A stretch of 64,000 bases of DNA from assembly GCA_016932555.1 (NCBI GenBank), contig JAFGCQ010000004.1:990-64989 (forward strand), written 5' to 3'. Position numbers and translations under genes: made by a program. Below are positions 1,002 to 63,808 of the stretch, one piece after another (position 1 is the first letter of the stretch; every line of letters starts with the position of its first letter). Under the pieces are notes generated by a model that was given only the letters and a program-made list of their open reading frames with translations, did not search any database and was not told the origin of the DNA. Source of the stretch: Candidatus Zambryskiibacteriota bacterium (GTDB lineage: Bacteria > Patescibacteriota > Minisyncoccia > Phycocordibacterales > WO2-35-19).

Positions 1002-1928
1002 TTATTGAATCTTGCAGACTCTTTGAAGTTCCGCTAGATCTTCTGGGGTGAGATTCAGAGAAGTTTGATTATCGCCGCTTGATAGATAATACATAATCGA
1101 ATCTGGATTATCGACATGCTCTAAACCTAGGGCGTGACCAAATTCGTGTGTTAGAGCTAATATCAAGTCTTTTTTATTGCCATATTGATAAACATTTATC
1201 TCTTGACCATTATATTCGGCTTGGTTGAACTCTAGCCCTCTATCGTATCGTTTATTATAATCTCTGGCTATTTGATTGTATTCAGATGCTTTATTGTTGC
1301 GAGTCTTTAAAAGTGTATTTAATTCAACACCCATTTGGTTTACAGCAGAAGCTTCGGTGTTTAATCTTAAAGCTTCAGAGTTTAAATAATGTCTTTCTGC
1401 TTCCAAAGATTCAAATATGGCTTGTAAGGCACCTGCCTGCGCAGGCAGGCCGCCTCTACTATTCCAATCTTGGACTTCGGCTTCATAAGCTGCTTTGCGA
1501 CTTTGAAATATAGCTAAAGCTTTTTCATAAGCGGAAACTCGGCTTTCATATTGGTTTTTAAAACTATTGAATTCCTGATCCAATTTTTTAAAAACTTCTT
1601 CAATAGCTGAAAGACCAAATTCAGTTCTCTGTTTTTGCAAGGTAGCCAGCTGTCTTTCATCGTAAACTAAATTAACCTTAAAATCGGCTCCCTCTTCGTA
1701 AGAAAAAACATTTTTATTCAAGGCCCTCTCCCAAACTTCCTCGGCTTCAAACAAATAAATTTTAAATTCAGCTTCAGTAATACCAAACTCTGTGTCAAAT
1801 CGACCAATTTCGTATTTAAGAGCCCGATCGCAAGGGTTTAAAGTCTTTTCATAAACAAAGTAGCCTGAAGCGCCGATGAGCGCCAAAAGCGCTATTATCG
1901 CCAAGCCATTTCCCAGTTTTTTTAGCAT
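1002..1928 (-). CDS. Membrane-anchored matrixin-like zinc metalloprotease
   Basis: N-terminal TM helix, coiled-coil middle, HEFGHALGLEH zinc motif followed by an IMY Met-turn. Carries the palindrome insert (GLPAQAG). Confidence 0.75.
   Translation of the reverse strand: MLKKLGNGLAIIALLALIGASGYFVYEKTLNPCDRALKYEIGRFDTEFGITEAEFKIYLFEAEEVWERALNKNVFSYEEGADFKVNLVYDERQLATLQKQRTEFGLSAIEEVFKKLDQEFNSFKNQYESRVSAYEKALAIFQSRKAAYEAEVQDWNSRGGLPAQAGALQAIFESLEAERHYLNSEALRLNTEASAVNQMGVELNTLLKTRNNKASEYNQIARDYNKRYDRGLEFNQAEYNGQEINVYQYGNKKDLILALTHEFGHALGLEHVDNPDSIMYYLSSGDNQTSLNLTPEDLAELQRVCKIQ
1432..1449. repeat. 18-nt perfect GC-rich palindrome CCTGCCTGCGCAGGCAGG, in-frame inside a CDS
   Basis: Sequence equals its own reverse complement. 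Same core at 61388-61407, variant at 35063-35082. Confidence 0.9.
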
Positions 1929-5609: not shown

Positions 5610-7079
5610 TTAAGTTGTCTCTCCCAGAAAATTTTTGCCAATTTCGAATAAAACATTTTCATTGCCATGAGCAGACATAAGTTGTATGCCAATCGGCAGA
5701 TCTTTGTCATTTATTTTAGCAAATCCAGACGGGATCGAAATAGCGGGTATGCCGGCGATATTAGCTGTAACCGTAAAAATATCAGCCAGATAATTTTCTA
5801 AGGGGCTAGTTTTTTCTCCTATCTTCCAGGCTGGTGTCGGAGCCGTCGGAGTTAAAACTACATTTACTTCATTAAAAGCTTTATTGAATTCATTCTTAAT
5901 AACTTCTCTAGCTGCCATAGCTTTGCCATAATAAGCGTCATAATAGCCGGCTGAGAGCACGTAGGTGCCAAGTATAATCCGCCTTCGTACTTCCGGACCT
6001 AAGCCTTCACCCCTAGTTTTTTTGTAAACTTCCATCAGATTACTTGTCCTGAGCGGAGTCGAAGGGTTGCCGTCCAAAGATAAACCGTATTTGATACCAT
6101 CATATCTGGCCATATTTGATGAGACTTCTGCCGGCATAATTATGTAATAAATAGTGAGTGATTTGTCTATATTTGGTAGTTTAATATCTTTAATTTCAAA
6201 ACCCAAATTTTTTAATTTTTCTACTGATTCTTCAAAATTTTCTTTCACTTCTCTCGAAATACCATCCTGCTCAAGTAAATGATAAGGCACGCCGATTCTT
6301 AAATCCCGAGATGAATCTTGGAGTGACCCGACCGATTTGCCGTCATGGCGGACAGGAATATGCGAAGTGCTATCATACTTGTCCTGACCTTTTATAACAT
6401 TAAAAATTATTTCAGCATCAGCAACTGATTTAGTGATAGGTCCTATTACATCAAGAGATGACCCCATGGCCATAAGGCCATAGCGAGATACGCTGCCGTA
6501 AGTTGGCTTCAACCCTACACAGCCACAAAAGCTGGCTGGTTCCCTGATTGAACCACCCGTATCCGATCCTAAGGCTCCTAGAGCCATATTAGCCGCTACA
6601 GCGGCCGCAGAGCCACCAGAAGAGCCACCAGCTACTTTTTCCGGATCATGGGGATTTCTGGTCACTCCAAACGCTGAATTCTCGGTAGAGCCACCCATAG
6701 CGAATTCATCCATATTGGTTCTGCCTATAAATATTCCATTTTGTTCAAGAATTTTCTTCGCTGCAGTAGCTGTGTATGTCGCTTTGTAATTTTCTAAAAT
6801 CTTAGAAGCAGCGCTGGCCTTCTTGCCTTTTATTAAAATATTATCCTTTATAGCTAAAGGTATACCGGTTAAATCTTTGGAATCGCCTTGATCAATGATT
6901 TTTTGAGCCAATTTGGCTTGCTCTAAAATATCATCATAAACTTCCAAATAAATATTAAGTTCTTTATTTTTATCTTCAATCTGCAGAAGGGCACCTTCTG
7001 TAAGTTCTTTAGCCGAAATCTCTTTGCTATCTAGCAATTTTCTCGCTTCTTTAATTGTCAAATCTTCTATTTGTGTCAT
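5610..7079 (-). CDS. gatA: Asp/Glu-tRNA(Asn/Gln) amidotransferase subunit A
   Basis: Amidase signature GGSSGGSAAAVA and full-length GatA-like sequence, followed by gatC. Confidence 0.9.
   Translation of the reverse strand: MTQIEDLTIKEARKLLDSKEISAKELTEGALLQIEDKNKELNIYLEVYDDILEQAKLAQKIIDQGDSKDLTGIPLAIKDNILIKGKKASAASKILENYKATYTATAAKKILEQNGIFIGRTNMDEFAMGGSTENSAFGVTRNPHDPEKVAGGSSGGSAAAVAANMALGALGSDTGGSIREPASFCGCVGLKPTYGSVSRYGLMAMGSSLDVIGPITKSVADAEIIFNVIKGQDKYDSTSHIPVRHDGKSVGSLQDSSRDLRIGVPYHLLEQDGISREVKENFEESVEKLKNLGFEIKDIKLPNIDKSLTIYYIIMPAEVSSNMARYDGIKYGLSLDGNPSTPLRTSNLMEVYKKTRGEGLGPEVRRRIILGTYVLSAGYYDAYYGKAMAAREVIKNEFNKAFNEVNVVLTPTAPTPAWKIGEKTSPLENYLADIFTVTANIAGIPAISIPSGFAKINDKDLPIGIQLMSAHGNENVLFEIGKNFLGETT
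6036..6065 (+). repeat. GC-rich short repeat, in-frame copy inside gatA (encodes PSTPLRTSN)
   Basis: Matches 2478-2507. Local GC island in an AT-rich gene. Confidence 0.7.
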
Positions 7080-34544: not shown

Positions 34545-35363
34545 TTATAGATTATAGTAGCATAAATCTGATAAATTTTGAAATAAACAAGCTATAGTTA
34601 GAGGTCCGATACCTCCCGGTACTGGTGAAATTGCTTTTAATTTATTAACTAATTCAGTAAAATCAACATCGCCCACTATTCTATCTTTCATCTTGTTTAT
34701 TCCTACATCAATAACTACCTGTTCTGGATTTATAAATTTCTCCGTTATAATACCTGCTTTACCGACAGCTGAAATTAATAAGTCGCATTTTTTTGCAATT
34801 TTTTCCGGATTTTTGGTATTGATGTCACAGCGAAAAACTTTTGCACCTCTTTTTTCAAGCTCATCAGCTATAGGTTTACCAGCTAAAATTGACTGGCCTA
34901 TAACTGCCGCTTTTTTGTCTTTAATTTCAAAATTATAAAAATTTAACAACGATATAACTGCACGTGCTGTGGCTGGAATAATTCCACTTCCTGATACTAG
35001 CCCGTCTACATCTTTTCTTTTATCAATCAAATTTATTATCTTTTCTGAATCAAAACCTTTAGACCTGCCTGCGCAAGCAGGTAATGGTAACTGTACAATA
35101 ATTCCATCTACGCTTTTATCTCCATTTAATTTTTTAATCTCTTCTATTAATTCTTTCTCAGTAATATCTTCGTTAAAATTCTTTAACAAAACTTCTACTC
35201 CGATCTCCTCTCCAAATTTGCGCTTGTTTTTAATATAAATACTTGAATCCGGCCGATCTCCAACTTGCACAATGGCTAAACAAGGCTTGCAGCCCAATTT
35301 TTTTACCCTCCTTATTAAATCTTCTTTAATTTTCTCCTTAACAGGAGCCCCATATAAAATCAT
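34545..35363 (-). CDS. folD: Bifunctional methylene-THF dehydrogenase/methenyl-THF cyclohydrolase
   Basis: VQLPLP and GGIGPLT motifs; carries the palindrome insert ACAGRSKG after LPLP. Confidence 0.9.
   Translation of the reverse strand: MILYGAPVKEKIKEDLIRRVKKLGCKPCLAIVQVGDRPDSSIYIKNKRKFGEEIGVEVLLKNFNEDITEKELIEEIKKLNGDKSVDGIIVQLPLPACAGRSKGFDSEKIINLIDKRKDVDGLVSGSGIIPATARAVISLLNFYNFEIKDKKAAVIGQSILAGKPIADELEKRGAKVFRCDINTKNPEKIAKKCDLLISAVGKAGIITEKFINPEQVVIDVGINKMKDRIVGDVDFTELVNKLKAISPVPGGIGPLTIACLFQNLSDLCYYNL
35063..35082. repeat. 20-nt near-palindrome ACCTGCCTGCGCAAGCAGGT (one mismatch), in-frame in folD
   Basis: Variant of the 1432/61388 palindrome. Confidence 0.85.
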
Positions 35364-49588: not shown

Positions 49589-50692
49589 ATGAGGTACGAG
49601 ATAAAAATAGAAAAATTGCCAAAATCTGAGGTAAAACTGGAAATATCACTTCCAGCCGAATTTTTAGATGAAGCTAGAAAAAAAGCAATAAGGAAATTTT
49701 GCGCTGAATTGGAGGTACCGGGATTCAGAAAGGGTAATGTGCCGGAAAATATCGCCATCGAAAAAGTCGGTGAAAACAAAATATTACAGGAAGCAGTGAA
49801 TATCCTCCTACAGGAACATTTTCCAAAAGTGATAGAACAGGAAAAACTTGATATAATTGGTCGACCGAATATTTCTATAACTAAGCTAGGACTCGGCAGC
49901 CCAACAGAATTTAAGGTTGAGTTCGCTACTCTGCCCGTTTTCAAATTGCCAGATTATAAAGAGATAGCAAAAAAATTAAGAATTGCGAATAACGAATCAA
50001 GAAAAGAAAAAAAGATAGAAGTCACTGATAAAGAGGTTGACGATGTACTTTTACAAATCCGGAAAAATAAGGCTCATTTTGATTGGCATAAAAGTCATCC
50101 AGAAGAGAAATCCGCCCAAGGCGGATCCGCCTTGGACGGAGGCCACAATCATCCAGAAATAAGAGATGAGGATCTGCCGCCACTGGATGATAAATTAGCA
50201 GAGGAAGCTGGTAATTTCAAAAATTTGGATGAACTTAAGGCCAAAATCAAAGAAAACATAAAATTCGAAAAAGAAAATAAAGAAACCGAAAAATTAAGAG
50301 CCGAAATTATGGAAGAATTATTAAAAGCGACCAAAATAGAAGTTCCAGATATATTAATAGAGAGCGAAATCGATAAAGCTTTAGCCCAGATGAAAGGTGA
50401 TATTGGAAGAATAGGTGTTAAATTTGAAGATTATCTAAAGCAGGTCAAAAAAACTGAAGAGGATTTGAAGAAAGAATTAAGTAGTAGCTCAGAAAAAAAA
50501 GCCGGCATCCAGCTTATCTTTAATAAAATTGCCGAAGCTGAAAAACTTGAGCCTAACAAAGAAATTTTAGAAAATGAAATTAAACACCTGATGGAGCATT
50601 ACCCCGACGCCTCCGAACAAAACGCCCGCATTTATGTTACCACCATTCTCCTAAACCAAGAAGTATTAAAACTTTTAGAAAATCAAAAATAA
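49589..50692 (+). CDS. tig: Trigger factor, apparently lacking the PPIase domain
   Basis: N-terminal ribosome-binding domain (GFRKGNVP) joined directly to the C-terminal arm domain through a short linker. Confidence 0.8.
50111..50140. repeat. 30-nt near-perfect GC-rich palindrome, in-frame in tig
   Basis: TCCGCCCAAGGCGGATCCGCCTTGGACGGA. The central 18 nt are perfectly palindromic; one mismatch in the outer arms. Confidence 0.85.
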
Positions 50693-50696
50693 AAAT

Positions 50697-51290
50697 ATGA
50701 AAAACGAAATCAAAAATCAAATATTAGTACCGACAGTGATTGAAAAGACCCACCAGGGCGAAAGAGCTTTTGATATTTACTCAAGACTTCTTAAAGACCG
50801 CATAATCTTCCTGGGCGGGCCAATCGAAGATACTATGGCCAACCTTATTATTGCCCAGTTGCTTTTCTTGCAGTCTGAAGACTCCAAGAAAGATATTTCC
50901 ATTTACATCAACTCCCCCGGCGGCGCCGTTACTTCAACTTTAGCTATTGTGGATACTATTAAATATATTAAACCGGATGTAGCCACTTACTGTGTGGGCA
51001 TTGCTGCAAGCGGCGCCGCTTTGGTGCTTTCGGCTGGTTCTAAAGGCAAAAGATATATTCTCAAAAATGCTGAGGTGATGATACATCAGCCCATCGGTGG
51101 CGCTGAAGGTCAGGCTACTGATATTGCTATCACTGCTAAACACATTTTAAAAACCAAAGAAAACTTAAATAAAATGCTGGCTGAAAATACCGCCCAGCCG
51201 CTTAAAAAAATCGAACAGGACGCCGAGCGTGATTACTTTATGTCAGCCGAGGAGGCAAAAAAATATGGCATCGTGGACAAGATCTTATAA
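50697..51290 (+). CDS. clpP: ATP-dependent Clp protease proteolytic subunit
   Basis: Full-length family match with the GxASG serine site (GIAASGAA) and MIHQP. Confidence 0.9.
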
Positions 51291-53095: not shown

Positions 53096-54535
53096 CTAGA
53101 GTAAATCATAAGATTTTTCCTCCTTCGGATATACTGCATCAACATTCAAATAATCTTTAATGCGCTGGACTAAGAAAAGTGAAGATTTCGGCTCGCCCAT
53201 TATAACAAATACGCGCTTAAGTTTACTCTTTTTCTCCCTCTCCTTCGCAAAGAGAGAGCTACGTGTAGTGAGGGATGAGGTCGCTACCTTTTCTACAAAC
53301 TCCAGCAAATGCTCTGAGTCTTTGTGTGATGAATAACCAGTGATATTTTCTATGGTAGCCCTGACTTTCACTGCTTCTTTTTTCTTATTACCACCAGTGT
53401 TAATAAAAACTTTTTTTACTCCATCCTGTAGTGCTCTGCCCAAAGACCCGATAGATTGATAACCCACTAGAATAATTGTCGCTTTAGGATCAGGCAAATA
53501 ATTTGCCTCATGATTTACAATTCTACCCCCTTCCGACATGCCTGAACCGGCCATGATTATTTTAGTTCCTTCAGTTTTTTCTATTTCTTTGGATTCTTCA
53601 AAATTTTTAATAATTTTTAACCCAGGAAAATTAAAAATGTTATCACCTTGTTTAATTTCTTTTTGGATTAAATCTTTGAAATCAGAGGAATATTTTTGAT
53701 AAATAGCAGTTACCTTTTCAGCTAAAGGTGAGTCCAAAAATACCGGCACTTTGGCAATTTTTCCACCCTCTATCATCTCATTAAGTTCATAGAGTAAAAC
53801 TTGAGTTCTTTCTATGGAAAAAGCCGGTATAATAATCGCACCGCCTTTCTTTATACCTTCTTCTAGAGCTCTTTTAAATTTTTTTCTTCTGTCTTTTTTG
53901 TTTTCATGATTCCTATCGCCATAGACACTTTCCATAACAAGATAATCAACTTCTTTGGGAAATTCAGTATCAGGTAAAAGTAGTGATGGTGAATTACCTA
54001 AATCTCCAGTGAATGTTATTTTTGTTTTTGAAATCGTAACACTCAAAATAGCCGAACCTAAAATATGCCCGGCATTTTGCATTTCTAAAAAACAATCATC
54101 AAAAAGTTTTATCTTCTCTCCATATTTTTTACCTTCCCAAAAAGCAAAACTTCTTTCAATATCATTTTCATTAAAAAGTTCTTGTTTAGGGTATTTTGAA
54201 CGCATAACTTTAAGCGCATCTTGAAGCATGAGCTTCGCTAATTCCATTGTTTCTTTGGTAGAAATTATTTTGCCTTTGAAACCTTCCTTCACTAATTTTG
54301 GAATTCTACCAATATGGTCCATATGGGCATGGGTGATAAGTAAGAAATTTATACCTATCGGATTGTATTTAAAGGGTTTAAAATTTTTATCCTCGGCATA
54401 TTTTGTTCCTTGAAAAAGACCGCAATCAATCAGAATTTTTCTTTGATTGCATTCTAGCATTATATTAGCACCAGTAGTAGAACCTACGCCGCCAAAAAAT
54501 CTAAGTTTTTGGTCATCATTCATATTTTTCTTCAA
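53096..54535 (-). CDS. MBL-fold beta-CASP family RNA-metabolising hydrolase
   Basis: HAHMDHIGRIP motif; beta-CASP layout; C-terminal ...IMGEP. Confidence 0.8.
   Translation of the reverse strand: MKKNMNDDQKLRFFGGVGSTTGANIMLECNQRKILIDCGLFQGTKYAEDKNFKPFKYNPIGINFLLITHAHMDHIGRIPKLVKEGFKGKIISTKETMELAKLMLQDALKVMRSKYPKQELFNENDIERSFAFWEGKKYGEKIKLFDDCFLEMQNAGHILGSAILSVTISKTKITFTGDLGNSPSLLLPDTEFPKEVDYLVMESVYGDRNHENKKDRRKKFKRALEEGIKKGGAIIIPAFSIERTQVLLYELNEMIEGGKIAKVPVFLDSPLAEKVTAIYQKYSSDFKDLIQKEIKQGDNIFNFPGLKIIKNFEESKEIEKTEGTKIIMAGSGMSEGGRIVNHEANYLPDPKATIILVGYQSIGSLGRALQDGVKKVFINTGGNKKKEAVKVRATIENITGYSSHKDSEHLLEFVEKVATSSLTTRSSLFAKEREKKSKLKRVFVIMGEPKSSLFLVQRIKDYLNVDAVYPKEEKSYDLL
53236..53280 (+). repeat. 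Family B GC-rich element, degenerate copy, in-frame inside the beta-CASP gene
   Basis: CCCTCTCC..GAGAGAGCTACGTGTAGTGAGGGATGAGG aligns with 58407-58451. Confidence 0.6.
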
Positions 54536-57220: not shown

Positions 57221-57240
57221 GAAATAAGTATAACATAAAT

Positions 57241-57285
57241 CCCCCACTCGGGACTAGTCCTCGACCTCCCCTTGATCAGGGGAGG
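57241..57285 (-). repeat. Family B-related GC-rich element (hairpin CCTCCCCT-TGATC-AGGGGAGG)
   Basis: Shares both ends with 57657-57702; direct repeat flanking the DUF559 gene. Confidence 0.6.
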
Positions 57286-57305
57286 CAATGCGCGATAATT
57301 AGGAA

Positions 57306-57656
57306 ATGACAAGAGTTCATAATATCCGCAAACTTTCAGATCGCAGGAAAGAATTACGAAAAAACCAAACAAAAACCGAAGAAAAACTCTGGTGGTATTT
57401 GAAAGATAAGAGGCTGGGAATTAAATTCAGAAGACAGCACAGTATAGGAGGATATATTTTAGATTTTATATGCAAAGAAAAGAAATTGATTATAGAAATT
57501 GATGGTAGAGTACATTTGAAAAAAGATAATAAAGAATACGATAAAGTTAGAGACAAATATTTTGAAGAGTTAAATTATAAAGTTCTGAGATTTACGAATG
57601 ATGAGGTTGAAAATGGGGTTAAAGAGATTATTGATGTTATAAAGCGGTATCTTTAA
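57306..57656 (+). CDS. DUF559 (Vsr-like) endonuclease-domain protein
   Basis: TEEKLWWYLK...FRRQHSIGGYILDF...IEIDG..H...D..RD..L...GY.VLRF pattern. Confidence 0.8.
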   Translation: MTRVHNIRKLSDRRKELRKNQTKTEEKLWWYLKDKRLGIKFRRQHSIGGYILDFICKEKKLIIEIDGRVHLKKDNKEYDKVRDKYFEELNYKVLRFTNDEVENGVKEIIDVIKRYL

Positions 57657-57702
57657 CCCCCACCCCTCAATTCGTGTAGCCCTTCTCTTGATCAGGGGAG
57701 GG
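57657..57702 (-). repeat. Family B GC-rich element, inverted copy
   Basis: Its reverse complement aligns along the whole length of 58407-58451 (about 80 percent by eye). Confidence 0.75.
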
Positions 57703-57724
57703 AAAACCAAAATCATACAAAAAG

Positions 57725-58322: not shown

Positions 58323-58406
58323 TGTTGGCTCCTTTCACCCATTAGGTCTGACTCAGGTTATACAACAATATAAAAATTAAAGCAAGAATAAAAAATACCG
58401 CGCGTT

Positions 58407-58451
58407 CCCTCCCCCGTCCAGGGGGAGGGCTACACGAAGTGAGGGGTGGGG
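58407..58451 (+). repeat. Family B GC-rich element abutting the secY stop codon
   Basis: CCCTCCCC-CGTCC-AGGGGGAGGG hairpin plus CTACACGAAGTGAGGGGTGGGG tail. Confidence 0.75.
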
Positions 58452-62364: not shown

Positions 62365-62384
62365 CGTCCGTCAGCCGACGGACG
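62365..62384 (-). other. Stem-loop between the RT stop and the rpsN start
   Basis: CGTCCGTC-AGCC-GACGGACG. Confidence 0.5.
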
Positions 62385-62419: not shown

Positions 62420-63424
62420 TCAAGCGCTTTGCTGTCTTGAGATAACAACGAAGCGTTTACCGTGTCTATTTTTTGGAATGTTTCTATTTAGTTTTTGCAG
62501 TAGTTTAATTTTTAAATCTCTGGAACGGCAGTGATGTAAAAGACCGTTATAAGATGAGAAATTTTTGTCAGTCACCCTATTAAATATTCTTCTTTTAGTT
62601 TTAGTTCTCAAAACTCTATGGTACGGGAAGCAAATATAACCCAAATAATCGATGCCGCTGGCATATGTTTTAAGGATAATTTTTTCAGGGTGGATTTTTA
62701 GCTTCAAATTCTGCCAGCAAAAATCTCGAATCTTAGGTATGCAAGATTCCAGAAAATTTTTATCAGGATGCATCAAAACAAAATCATCAGTATATCTAAT
62801 ATAGCCCTTTACTTTTAAATCATGCTTCACGAACTGATCAAATTTGTTCATAAAAATATTGGCAAATATTTGAGAAGTCAGATTGCCAAGAGGTATGCCG
62901 CAATTGAAACTTTCAACAATGTCCTTGGTTAGGATGATAAGCTCTTTATCAAAAGTCTTTTCCTCTAATATCCGCAGAAGCTTATTATGATCGACAGATT
63001 CAAAAAACTTTCTTATATCCAACTTCAGCACCCAGATAGTTTTGCTGTTATTTCGGGAAATTTTGAGTCCTATTTTGTGGAGTCTTTTAACCGCAGCATG
63101 AGTGCCTTTATATTTTCTGGAAGACCAAGAGTCAAAGATAAATTTTTTATCCCACATTGGCTCTATGACTCTGATTATGGCATGGTGCAAAAGTCTGTCT
63201 CTAACGCTGGCTTTGTTAATGTGCCTCCTTTTGGGATCACTTATATAGAAAGAAAAATATCCGCCATGCCTGTAATTACCGCTTTTCAAATCCTCATGCA
63301 GTTTGAAAATGTTATCTTCCAAACCAAGCTCGAATTCCGCCACATCTTTCTTGCCTCGCTTATCCTTGCGAAACTCAGCCCAAGCGTCGAAGAGATTTTT
63401 TAATGAAATAATTTTTTCAAACAT
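62420..63424 (-). CDS. Diversity-generating-retroelement-type reverse transcriptase
   Basis: RT motifs 1-7 readable: DPKRRHINKASVRDRLLHH, LKLDIRKFFESVDH, GIPLGNLTSQIFANIF, YTDDFVL, GIDYLGY. Start set at MFEKIISLKNLFDAW. Confidence 0.85.
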   Translation of the reverse strand: MFEKIISLKNLFDAWAEFRKDKRGKKDVAEFELGLEDNIFKLHEDLKSGNYRHGGYFSFYISDPKRRHINKASVRDRLLHHAIIRVIEPMWDKKFIFDSWSSRKYKGTHAAVKRLHKIGLKISRNNSKTIWVLKLDIRKFFESVDHNKLLRILEEKTFDKELIILTKDIVESFNCGIPLGNLTSQIFANIFMNKFDQFVKHDLKVKGYIRYTDDFVLMHPDKNFLESCIPKIRDFCWQNLKLKIHPEKIILKTYASGIDYLGYICFPYHRVLRTKTKRRIFNRVTDKNFSSYNGLLHHCRSRDLKIKLLQKLNRNIPKNRHGKRFVVISRQQSA

Positions 63425-63808
63425 ATGAATAGAAACAACAATAATAAAACAGCGGAGCAAACACCATTCTTTCAAGCAGTTTATAAATTGTATCTATCAT
63501 GGTATGTCAGATGCGGACAACTGCCAAAGAAAGACAGGTTTACCATTGGACAGAAGACGGAAAACTTGCTTCTGGAAATTCTCCTGTTAACGGTGACTGC
63601 CTACCACACAAGCAGCTTGGATTTAAAGAGACAATCATTACTCAAAGCCAATACTACTCTTGAATGCGTTAAAATCAGCATTAGATTGGCAAAGGACATC
63701 AAAGCTCTGGAGCAGCATTGGTACATAGATTATCAGAGAAGAATCCAAGAGATGGGCAAGATGCTCGGCGGCTGGATTGCCAGCACTTACAACAAAACGG
63801 GCAAGTAA
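63425..63808 (+). CDS. avd: Avd-like four-helix-bundle accessory protein
   Basis: LPKKDRFTIGQKTENLLLEIL ... IQEMGKMLGGWI pattern; adjacent to the RT. Confidence 0.75.
   Translation: MNRNNNNKTAEQTPFFQAVYKLYLSWYVRCGQLPKKDRFTIGQKTENLLLEILLLTVTAYHTSSLDLKRQSLLKANTTLECVKISIRLAKDIKALEQHWYIDYQRRIQEMGKMLGGWIASTYNKTGK

Follow-up and report, generated by a model that had tools for sequence, protein, structure and literature searches.

A 30-nucleotide palindrome inserted in frame into the PPIase-less trigger factor gene of a Zambryskibacteria genome belongs to a dispersed, probably selfish repeat family of Patescibacteria

The 64,000-nt stretch of contig JAFGCQ010000004.1 analyzed here (referred to below as the window) comes from a Candidatus Zambryskibacteria metagenome-assembled genome (MAG) and contains tig, the gene for trigger factor, with nusA on its 5' side, clpP directly on its 3' side (50697..51290) and the gene for RNase Y also lying 3'. 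The 367-aa tig product is an exact match to the MAG protein JW740_00520 (NCBI). It lacks the FKBP-type peptidyl-prolyl isomerase (PPIase) domain, and the linker between its two remaining domains includes ten residues encoded by a 30-nt GC-rich palindrome. The account that we favor, with some reserve, is that tig has recorded two independent events: an old loss of the PPIase domain and, much later, the arrival of a palindromic selfish micro-element whose spread is linked to nucleases.

A first-pass annotation of the window had described the tig product as a trigger factor from which the PPIase domain is missing, and a Pfam domain scan bore this out: Trigger_N and Trigger_C were both identified (Table 1), while FKBP_C gave no match, even at E≤10. 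The NCBIfam equivalog model for tig, TIGR00115, scored 204.4 bits against a cut-off of 180.2, with its match split over two separate stretches. An AlphaFold model, for which the input alignment comprised 30 homologues, had a mean predicted local distance difference test score (pLDDT) of 85.9, and its top PDB matches were solved trigger factors (3gu0, 2vrh and 1w26). The N-domain of the model superposed on 1oms/1p9y with a root-mean-square deviation of 2-3 Å, the C-domain was all-helical, and the 58 residues separating Trigger_N from Trigger_C were modeled as coil with no β-rich head. Residues G45, F46, R47, K48, G49 and P52 of Trigger_N were invariant across 30 homologues.

The absence of the PPIase domain extends well beyond this genome. 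A HMMER scan of 1.84 billion cluster representatives returned 735 matches at E≤1e-30, of which the best 150 were inspected. Nearly all of these 150 clusters (formed at 50% identity) had lengths of 330-390 aa, down to 34% identity; the 120 best homologues (59-69% identity, 335-371 aa) all carried PF05697 and PF05698 only, and FKBP_C was found in none of ten distant homologues sampled. Because the best 120 homologues, nearly all of the best 150 clusters and the ten distant members lack the domain, these comparisons indicate that its loss is ancient, clade-wide and independent of the palindrome. The linker that remains keeps a conserved His-rich motif, HFDWHxxHPxEK-GHNHPEI, in alignments of 30-36 homologues. 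Histidines H163, H167, H186 and H188 are conserved within it (aa 163-190, window positions 50075-50160), and the palindrome splits the pattern HFDWHxxH...GHNH. This histidine cluster may be a metal-binding mini-motif.

The trigger factor of this Zambryskibacteria/Paceibacteria lineage would on this reading be a chaperone made of an N-domain and a C-domain, left by an old loss of the FKBP-type PPIase and joined by a His-rich linker. For comparison, the N-domain, PPIase domain and C-domain of the E. coli protein span residues 1-149, 150-245 and 246-432, respectively (PMC4626277), and an E. coli trigger factor engineered without its PPIase domain reportedly keeps chaperone activity (Gupta et al. 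2010, as cited under reference 35 of PMC4626277). The engineered protein has the same N-domain plus C-domain architecture as that of Zambryskibacteria. However, it is a laboratory construct, whereas a very large clade has the PPIase-less form naturally, with a conserved His-rich linker of its own. We found no description of a natural PPIase-less trigger factor in the open-access literature. As the rule in so large a clade, it amounts to a natural experiment on the dispensability of the PPIase head.

The palindrome (TCCGCCCAAGGCGGATCCGCCTTGGACGGA, 50111-50140) is built of two abutted 15-nt arms with zero spacer. It is centered on GGATCC and its arms are complementary at 14 of 15 positions, in agreement with the earlier description of the site as a near-perfect palindrome. 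Compared with the consensus of the repeat family described below, TCCGCCCAAGGCGGATCCGCCTTGGGCGGA, the window copy has a single mismatch, an A at 50136 where the consensus has G. Its GC content is 70% versus 35% for the window; it is the longest and most GC-paired of the window's zero-loop palindromes, and its 15-nt arm has no further copy anywhere in the 64 kb. Assuming uniform base composition, we estimate that a 15-pair palindrome with at most one mismatch would be expected about 0.003 times per 64 kb. When folded as RNA, the window copy reached -20.5 kcal/mol (z = -4.6; none of 200 shuffled sequences was as stable) and the consensus hairpin -27.7 kcal/mol. No Rfam family matched the palindrome; the sub-threshold Rfam matches obtained fall on the terminator 5' of tig.

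To place the palindrome relative to the domain loss, we compared the gene at the codon level with 35 related tig genes from GTDB species representatives. The palindrome is an exact gain of ten codons between ...GAGAAA and GGCCAC..., without counterpart in any of the 35 genes. Nothing at all occupies this linker position in 31 of them. The other four carry different GC-rich, mostly hairpin-forming insertions in the same linker: one of 36 nt (locus L001), an element of about 45 nt shared by L016 and L031, and one containing CCCTCCCCAAAAGGGAGGG (L032). Further insertions occur elsewhere in related tig genes, for example two tandem hairpins in L018. Residues 176-186, which coincide with the insertion, are the only segment of the tig model with pLDDT <50. 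Given the variety of insertions in the linker and the disorder at this one, we conclude that the linker is a permissive site that has been colonised repeatedly. The modeled disorder also suggests that the effect of the ten loop residues on trigger factor is probably nil. A 10-nt direct repeat, TCATCCAGAA, at 50095 and 50149 was considered as a target duplication and rejected: it encodes two HPE motifs, and the region containing both is also present in relatives without the insertion.

The codon alignments thus indicate that the palindrome is a later insertion into a linker that was already PPIase-less. The first-pass annotation had left two origins open, insertion into an already reduced linker or a palindromic element at the junction of the deletion, and had taken the palindrome to be the replacement linker itself; a dispersed, translated repeat family tied to small nuclease genes was not among its proposals. 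Of this interpretation only the insertion survives, given that relatives lack the PPIase domain, that 31 of 35 tig genes are empty at this position, and that at least 100 unrelated copies of the palindrome exist. The deletion junction does not, since the domain loss predates the palindrome and the linker is conserved without it; nor does the replacement linker, which is in truth the conserved His-rich stretch that the palindrome splits.

Copies of the element elsewhere were identified by exact match to its central 20-mer in public metagenome contigs. All copy counts given here derive from that one scan, and the figures hold among the matches listed. At least 120 contigs matched, compared with a rough expectation of about one by chance, and they represent at least 108 non-redundant sites. 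A perfect 30-mer, TCCGCCCAAGGCGGATCCGCCTTGGGCGGA, was present at 92 of the 108 sites listed, yet 10 of its 30 bases were unconstrained by the search. The borders of the element are sharp; its flanks are unrelated and AT-rich, the host contigs mostly have 31-45% GC, and copies occur in the interior of contigs that numerous independent projects and assemblers produced. The consensus resolves into two inverted 15-nt hairpin units, TCCGCCCAAGGCGGA followed by TCCGCCTTGGGCGGA. Named host genomes were Magasanikbacteria, 'Parcubacteria group' and 'Patescibacteria group' MAGs, an assignment based on the few clusters that carry names. IMG/VR and PLSDB each returned no match to the 30-mer, and in the open-access literature we found no paper containing its sequence or describing such an element.

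The 30-mer is, for the most part, a genic element: 71 of the 108 listed copies (66%) lie inside open reading frames (ORFs) of at least 150 aa. With a length divisible by three and all of its frames free of stop codons, it is simply translated. The three frames are used very unequally by the 71 listed genic copies (57:8:6; binomial p = 6e-16). In the majority frame the element reads as a Ser/Ala/Gly-rich decapeptide and in the minority frames as PPKADPPWA (8 copies) and RPRRIRLGR (6 copies); the copy in tig is read in the majority frame. The host genes are housekeeping genes and include UvrD, PyrG, CysRS, AlaRS (at two different sites), HisRS, LeuRS, LigA, MiaA, UvrC, TypA, SMC, FolD and PFOR-beta. 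The 30-mer is therefore translated and filtered by selection on reading frame. It would persist in genes mainly when read as the majority decapeptide, and in tig it would be tolerated as a flexible, Ser/Ala/Gly-rich extension, by ten residues, of a disordered surface loop.

Variants of the element were also recovered: some copies have decayed (SAQGGSASGG), some consist of a solo 15-nt half, and others form mixed dimers or nested palindromes. In L129 (5590-5650) a 30-mer is split at its center by a CCTGCC...GGCAGG palindrome, a nested insertion, and L142 (971-1000) contains a mixed dimer of TCCGCCCAAGGCGGA and CCAGCCTGGGGCTGG. The related tig loci yielded one solo 15-nt half, intergenic in a Zambryskibacteria genome (L005 15494-15508), and one variant (L028). 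A separate hairpin, CCCCTCTCCTTNGCAAGGAGAGGGG (read as TSPPTPLLAKERG), recurs in many related genomes, inside an ORF of about 480 aa situated a few kb downstream of tig (L006 14279, L012 15696, L019 14250, L023 15010, L025 7753, L029 13993 and 14810, and others). A hairpin scan of the window's β-CASP/metallo-β-lactamase ORF (about 480 aa, 53099-54535), which lies at a similar distance downstream of tig, detected no hairpin of the CCCCTCTCCTTNGCAAGGAGAGGGG type.

Target sites and allelic comparisons provided evidence of movement. T is favored at -2 (79% of flanks) and at -3 (55%), with the mirror-image preference on the 3' side: 60 of 88 perfect copies combine T at -2 with A at +2, and the preferred base is absent from both sides in only 2 of the 88. 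Across 103 copies, direct repeats were not enriched at the borders, which gives no sign of a target duplication. Filled and empty PFOR-beta alleles (83% nucleotide identity) differ by a clean 30-nt gain at ATC^GAA with no duplication, and filled and empty CysRS alleles (97.7% identity) show a complex difference within an older palindromic insertion. In a pair of AlaRS alleles with 99.3% nucleotide identity (L148 1462-3450 versus L159 2001-3956), the filled allele exceeds the empty one by 33 nt, made up of the 30-mer and one further codon, and the 14 substitutions in 1,956 nt all fall in a stretch of about 36 nt to one side of the 30-mer, a cluster that looks like a short conversion tract or the product of error-prone repair. 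The presence of the element thus varies between alleles that are 83-99% identical, which at the level of sequence marks it as recently mobile.

The genomic surroundings of some copies point to a possible partner. Locus L060 has a free-standing GIY-YIG gene (82 aa, 6559-6807) followed by a tRNA-Ser gene; 25 nt upstream of the GIY-YIG gene is a 30-mer, embedded in 20 nt that duplicate the 5' end of the tRNA gene. The gene family typified by L060 (325 matches, about 80 aa) occurs in Falkow-, Azam-, Vogel-, Magasanik-, Buchanan- and Nomurabacteria and in Paceibacterota. Over-extended ORF calls in this family numbered 20, and in 19 of them the extension crosses a 30-mer-like palindrome, read in one or another of the three frames; in all four independent loci checked in DNA such hairpins lie just upstream of the GIY-YIG gene; in L163 the sequence found there is the exact 15-nt half-unit TCCGCCTTGGGCGGA. 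L060 (6490-6900), L165 (800-1260) and L166 (780-1700) share a common layout: the GIY-YIG gene is directly upstream of a class II tRNA gene, and before it stands a tRNA-like 5' fragment, which repeats the first ~20 nt of that tRNA and is broken after about nt 12 by a double hairpin of 30 nt. The whole cassette unit is duplicated in tandem in L166. Palindromes of the 30-mer type are thus physically tied to GIY-YIG genes. Another small GIY-YIG gene, in L147 (6130-6580), lies between perfect 16-nt inverted repeats, CTGTCATTGCGAGGAA, and a fragment of its subterminal hairpin (ATCCTGTACTTCGTCAGGA) also adjoins the 30-mer within the CysRS insertion of L059.

A second palindrome family links in-frame insertions to nuclease cassettes more directly. 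The 18-nt palindrome CCTGCCTGCGCAGGCAGG has three in-frame copies in the window, where none is expected (Table 1). In the copy within ribosomal protein L6, alignment to 7nhn_K leaves a 6-residue gap in the target, so that the copy is a clean insertion with respect to solved L6 structures. For the copy in FolD, comparison with solved FolD structures was ambiguous between insertion and replacement, and it was not accepted as a clean insertion. No exact CCTGCCTGCGCAGGCAGG was found in the other loci examined, so palindrome families differ between genomes. Protein P0209 (L160 71-1414) is a PPIase-less tig homologue of 447 aa with an in-frame GIY-YIG domain at the start of its C-domain, between ...AQSLG and NFK.... 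Imperfect inverted repeats of 22 nt, beginning with CCTGCCTGC and ending with GCAGGCAGG, enclose the nuclease insert; CCTGCCTGC and GCAGGCAGG are the two halves of the window 18-mer, which therefore corresponds to the abutted outer 9 nt of the cassette repeats. Related cassettes lie in frame in MsrB, HsdR and other proteins (P0321-P0329), always bounded by LPAPRP...RQAG, and L161 contains a full cassette followed in tandem by a 39-nt miniature of the same cassette. By sequence comparison, the 18-mer family is therefore a series running from full cassette through miniature to 18-nt abutted tips.

Table 1. Coordinates of tig, its domains and the palindromic insertions in the window
Feature	Position	Strand	Evidence or remark
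tig, trigger factor, 367 aa	49589..50692	+	ORF; TIGR00115, 204.4 bits; AlphaFold model
Trigger_N, ribosome-binding, aa 4-154, includes GFRKGNVP	49598..50050	+	Pfam, 110 bits, E = 1.5e-31
Short linker between the two domains, aa 155-212, replacing a PPIase head of ~96 aa	50051..50224	+	FKBP_C absent; conservation in relatives
30-nt GC-rich palindrome, in-frame 10-codon insertion, aa 175-184	50111..50140	.	29/30 copy of TCCGCCCAAGGCGGATCCGCCTTGGGCGGA
Trigger_C, arm/cradle, aa 213-343	50225..50617	+	Pfam, 90.5 bits, E = 1.6e-25
18-nt perfect palindrome CCTGCCTGCGCAGGCAGG, reads GLPAQAG, in ribosomal protein L6	61389..61406	.	6-residue insertion
CCTGCCTGCGCAGGCAGG with 1 mismatch, reads PACAGR after VQLPL, in FolD	35064..35081	.	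In frame
CCTGCCTGCGCAGGCAGG, perfect, reads GLPAQAG, in M10-type metallopeptidase ORF	1432..1449	.	In frame

Together, these observations suggest that the 30-mer is probably a selfish, recently mobile miniature repeat of Patescibacteria that spreads by nuclease-driven repair. It would be a gene-less miniature derivative, or companion module, of small GIY-YIG nuclease cassettes. Breaks made by the nuclease would be repaired from an element-bearing copy, spreading the 30-mer in a homing-like manner, with occasional ectopic insertion at look-alike sites; insertion takes place without target duplication and prefers T at -2 and A at +2. Within a cassette, the palindrome may protect the cassette's own copy of the target from cleavage. 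We advance a more specific version only tentatively, as one that may well prove wrong. In it, the 30-mer is a mobile or immunity-conferring module of undescribed GIY-YIG homing cassettes that sit beside class II tRNA genes; each cassette keeps a tRNA-like copy of its target interrupted by the palindrome, cuts at look-alike sites are repaired with the 30-mer only, leaving translated 10-residue scars in essential genes, and a sister family is translated in frame, nuclease included, within host proteins such as trigger factor.

Several points weigh against spread by nuclease-driven repair. To our knowledge, GIY-YIG enzymes do not act as transposases, and insertion at non-homologous sites requires an extra, unexplained step. 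A narrow, two-subfamily hidden Markov model detected no GIY-YIG gene in the 64-kb window, so nothing local ties the tig copy to a nuclease. That copy is also atypical: its flanks, GAGAAA^GGCCAC, have neither the preferred T at -2 nor the preferred A at +2, and it carries one mismatch. The full 30-mer had no copy in about 580 kb of related loci and is rare in Zambryskibacteria. Where 30-mers do accompany GIY-YIG genes they occur on the 5' side only, beside the gene and not inside it, and a relation to the abutted inverted repeats of a cassette was seen for the 18-mer family only. Lastly, at orthologous filled sites whose flanks are 61-84% identical, the element is kept at 30 of 30 positions, synonymous ones included, which implies either recent lateral spread between alleles or constraint at the nucleotide level.

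The main rival holds that the 30-mer is moved in trans, as an element resembling a miniature transposable element with inverted repeats (MITE) or a repetitive extragenic palindrome (REP), by a hairpin-recognising transposase of the Y1/HUH, IS200/IS605 or REP-associated tyrosine transposase (RAYT) type, and that the GIY-YIG genes are mere neighbors or targets. A hairpin combined with duplication-free insertion at a short flank is typical of single-strand HUH transposition, and the 30-mer has two tandem hairpins on either strand, no target duplication and a short preferred flank; solo 15-nt hairpins and mixed dimers exist, and palindromes of the CCTGCC type insert into the 30-mer center. However, no such transposase was seen in any locus examined, though no search was aimed at these enzymes. 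The flank bias is two-sided (60 of 88 copies on both sides), unlike the one-sided targets of IS200/IS605, and whereas REP/RAYT systems are extragenic and high-copy per genome, 30-mers are mostly genic, low-copy and common to several lineages. We consider this rival unlikely, but it is the strongest of those that we weighed. Distinctly less probable is a functional signal maintained by selection, whether a dimer-binding or recombination site (dif- or lox-like), a DNA uptake sequence, or an mRNA hairpin acting through ribosome pausing or RNase III, which would regulate tig or the domain-wise folding of its product. The perfect conservation just described, the strength of the hairpin (consensus, -27.7 kcal/mol; window copy, -20.5 kcal/mol) and the resemblance of a 30-bp perfect palindrome to a dimer-binding site all fit such a role. 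Yet the 30-mer is missing from all 35 related tig genes and varies between 99%-identical alleles, it is scattered over unrelated genes and intergenic DNA, and at one per 64-kb window it is too sparse for an uptake signal. It has no Rfam match, and the window copy is already degenerate. A role as an intrinsic terminator was rejected because the T-rich upstream and A-rich downstream flanks are the reverse of what a terminator has.

The remaining alternatives were given little weight. That the insertion was kept for the sake of the protein, its Gly/Ser/Ala decapeptide lengthening a linker that PPIase loss had made too short, is very unlikely: the strong majority-frame bias, the position in a disordered interdomain loop and the presence of some insertion in this linker in 5 of 36 tig genes speak for it, but 31 of the 36 manage without one here, and the copies are identical in DNA, not merely in peptide, and occur in intergenic DNA and in the other two frames as well. 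Moreover, the other linker insertions are unrelated in peptide, yet all are GC-rich and most form hairpins. The palindrome could also have arisen where it now stands, at the junction of the PPIase deletion, through inverted duplication or template switching, a proposal prompted by its location in the interdomain linker, where full-length trigger factors have their PPIase domain. It is already refuted, and hardly any probability remains to it, because the domain loss is far older than the palindrome, the linker around it is conserved in relatives without the 30-mer, and the identical 30-mer occurs at no fewer than 100 unrelated sites. An artefact of sequencing or assembly (an adapter, a BamHI-site linker or an amplification chimera) is the least credible of all. 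The perfect palindromic core centered on GGATCC and the location of some copies near contig ends might suggest one, but others lie internally in contigs from many independent projects and assemblers, the frames are open and strongly biased, decayed variants exist, and filled and empty alleles both assemble cleanly.

Two other regions of the window contain genes accompanied by GC-rich hairpins or arranged as possible mobile units. An RVT_1 reverse transcriptase gene (62423-63475, - strand) and a bAvd-like gene (63425-63805, + strand) are divergent and adjoin the S8 and L6 genes; the pair looks like a diversity-generating retroelement candidate, and a GC-rich hairpin (62365-62384) lies just downstream of the reverse transcriptase gene. 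Near secY, a small gene for a DUF559 (Vsr-like endonuclease) protein (57306-57656), on the opposite strand to its neighbors, has the hairpin CC(C)TCCCCTTGATCAGGGGAGG(G) on either side (57240-57703). At 58393-58450 a homologous unit (the hairpin plus ctacacgaaNtgaggggtgggg, about 45 nt) recurs in inverted orientation and brackets a second small ORF. The DUF559 unit looks like another nuclease cassette with GC-rich hairpin ends.

If the 30-mer is indeed a selfish repeat spread by nucleases, the genomes of Patescibacteria, which count among the smallest and most streamlined known, tolerate an element hidden in essential genes as ten amino acids. As an in-frame mobile element it would be unusually small, below the 100-150 bp of the Rickettsia palindromic elements (RPEs) considered next, and palindromic repeats, gene-less miniature derivatives and homing nucleases, as a rule treated apart, would become connected. 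There are practical consequences as well. Together with its sister families, the 30-mer produces recurrent GC-rich insertions of 6-16 residues that disturb alignments, phylogenies and domain annotation in the candidate phyla radiation (CPR), and causes spurious ORF extensions in MAG annotation. Near-identical copies break metagenome assemblies, and the presence/absence alleles could be used as strain markers.

Among known systems, the closest counterparts of the 30-mer are palindromes found inside genes. RPEs are reportedly selfish palindromic repeats, present in frame in many genes, essential ones included, and encoding no transposase. Like the 30-mer they are in frame and translated as an extra peptide at permissive surface positions. 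RPEs, however, measure roughly 100-150 bp, are imperfect and occur in Rickettsia only, whereas the 30-mer has 30 nt, is perfect, occurs in several Patescibacterial lineages and is associated with GIY-YIG genes; length and host phylum thus set the two apart. The GC clusters and ultra-short palindromic elements of fungal mitochondria are GC-rich palindromes of about 30-50 nt in AT-rich genomes, mobile and occasionally in frame, with homing-endonuclease genes in the same genomes. They differ from the 30-mer in being organellar, in usually having a short AT-rich target duplication, in falling into many sequence classes, in being bypassed in some cases instead of translated, and in having no fixed 30-nt consensus.

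The likeness to MITEs and REPs is more partial. A REPIN consists of two inverted REP units much as the 30-mer consists of two inverted 15-nt hairpins. However, REPs are extragenic, high-copy within one genome and largely vertical in inheritance, whereas 66% of the listed 30-mers lie in long ORFs, and the element has no GTAG head. Bacterial MITEs, of which the Correia elements and the QMITEs of Coxiella are among the examples given (review PMC3184786; PMC5896051), resemble it as gene-less derivatives of longer elements, a relation illustrated here by the series of 18-mer, 39-mer and GIY-YIG cassette. The 30-mer also resembles them in its terminal inverted repeats, the two 15-nt arms that make up the whole element. 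An autonomous partner with the same ends was seen for the 18-mer family, in the GIY-YIG cassettes bounded by CCTGCCTGC... and their 39-nt miniature; the GIY-YIG genes that accompany 30-mers have the palindrome on their 5' side only. MITEs nevertheless measure 50-500 bp and carry a target duplication, while the 30-mer has 30 nt, has no duplication and is mostly intragenic.

Free-standing GIY-YIG homing endonuclease genes, such as the seg genes of phage T4 near tRNA genes, offer a further parallel. As with homing genes, GIY-YIG genes described here lie beside tRNA genes, with an interrupted duplicate of the presumed target; one recent insertion of the 30-mer has a conversion-like tract next to it, and near-identical alleles differ in the presence of the element. 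In classical homing, however, the nuclease gene is copied into one cognate site, whereas here a gene-less 30-mer occupies at least 100 sites, and, unlike in classical homing, a related cassette family translates its nuclease in frame within host proteins. The 30-mer thus lies outside the REP/RAYT systems, which are extragenic, outside MITEs by its size and lack of a duplication, and outside RPEs by its size and host. By analogy, it behaves most like the RPEs and the mitochondrial GC clusters, as a selfish palindrome that is tolerated in frame.

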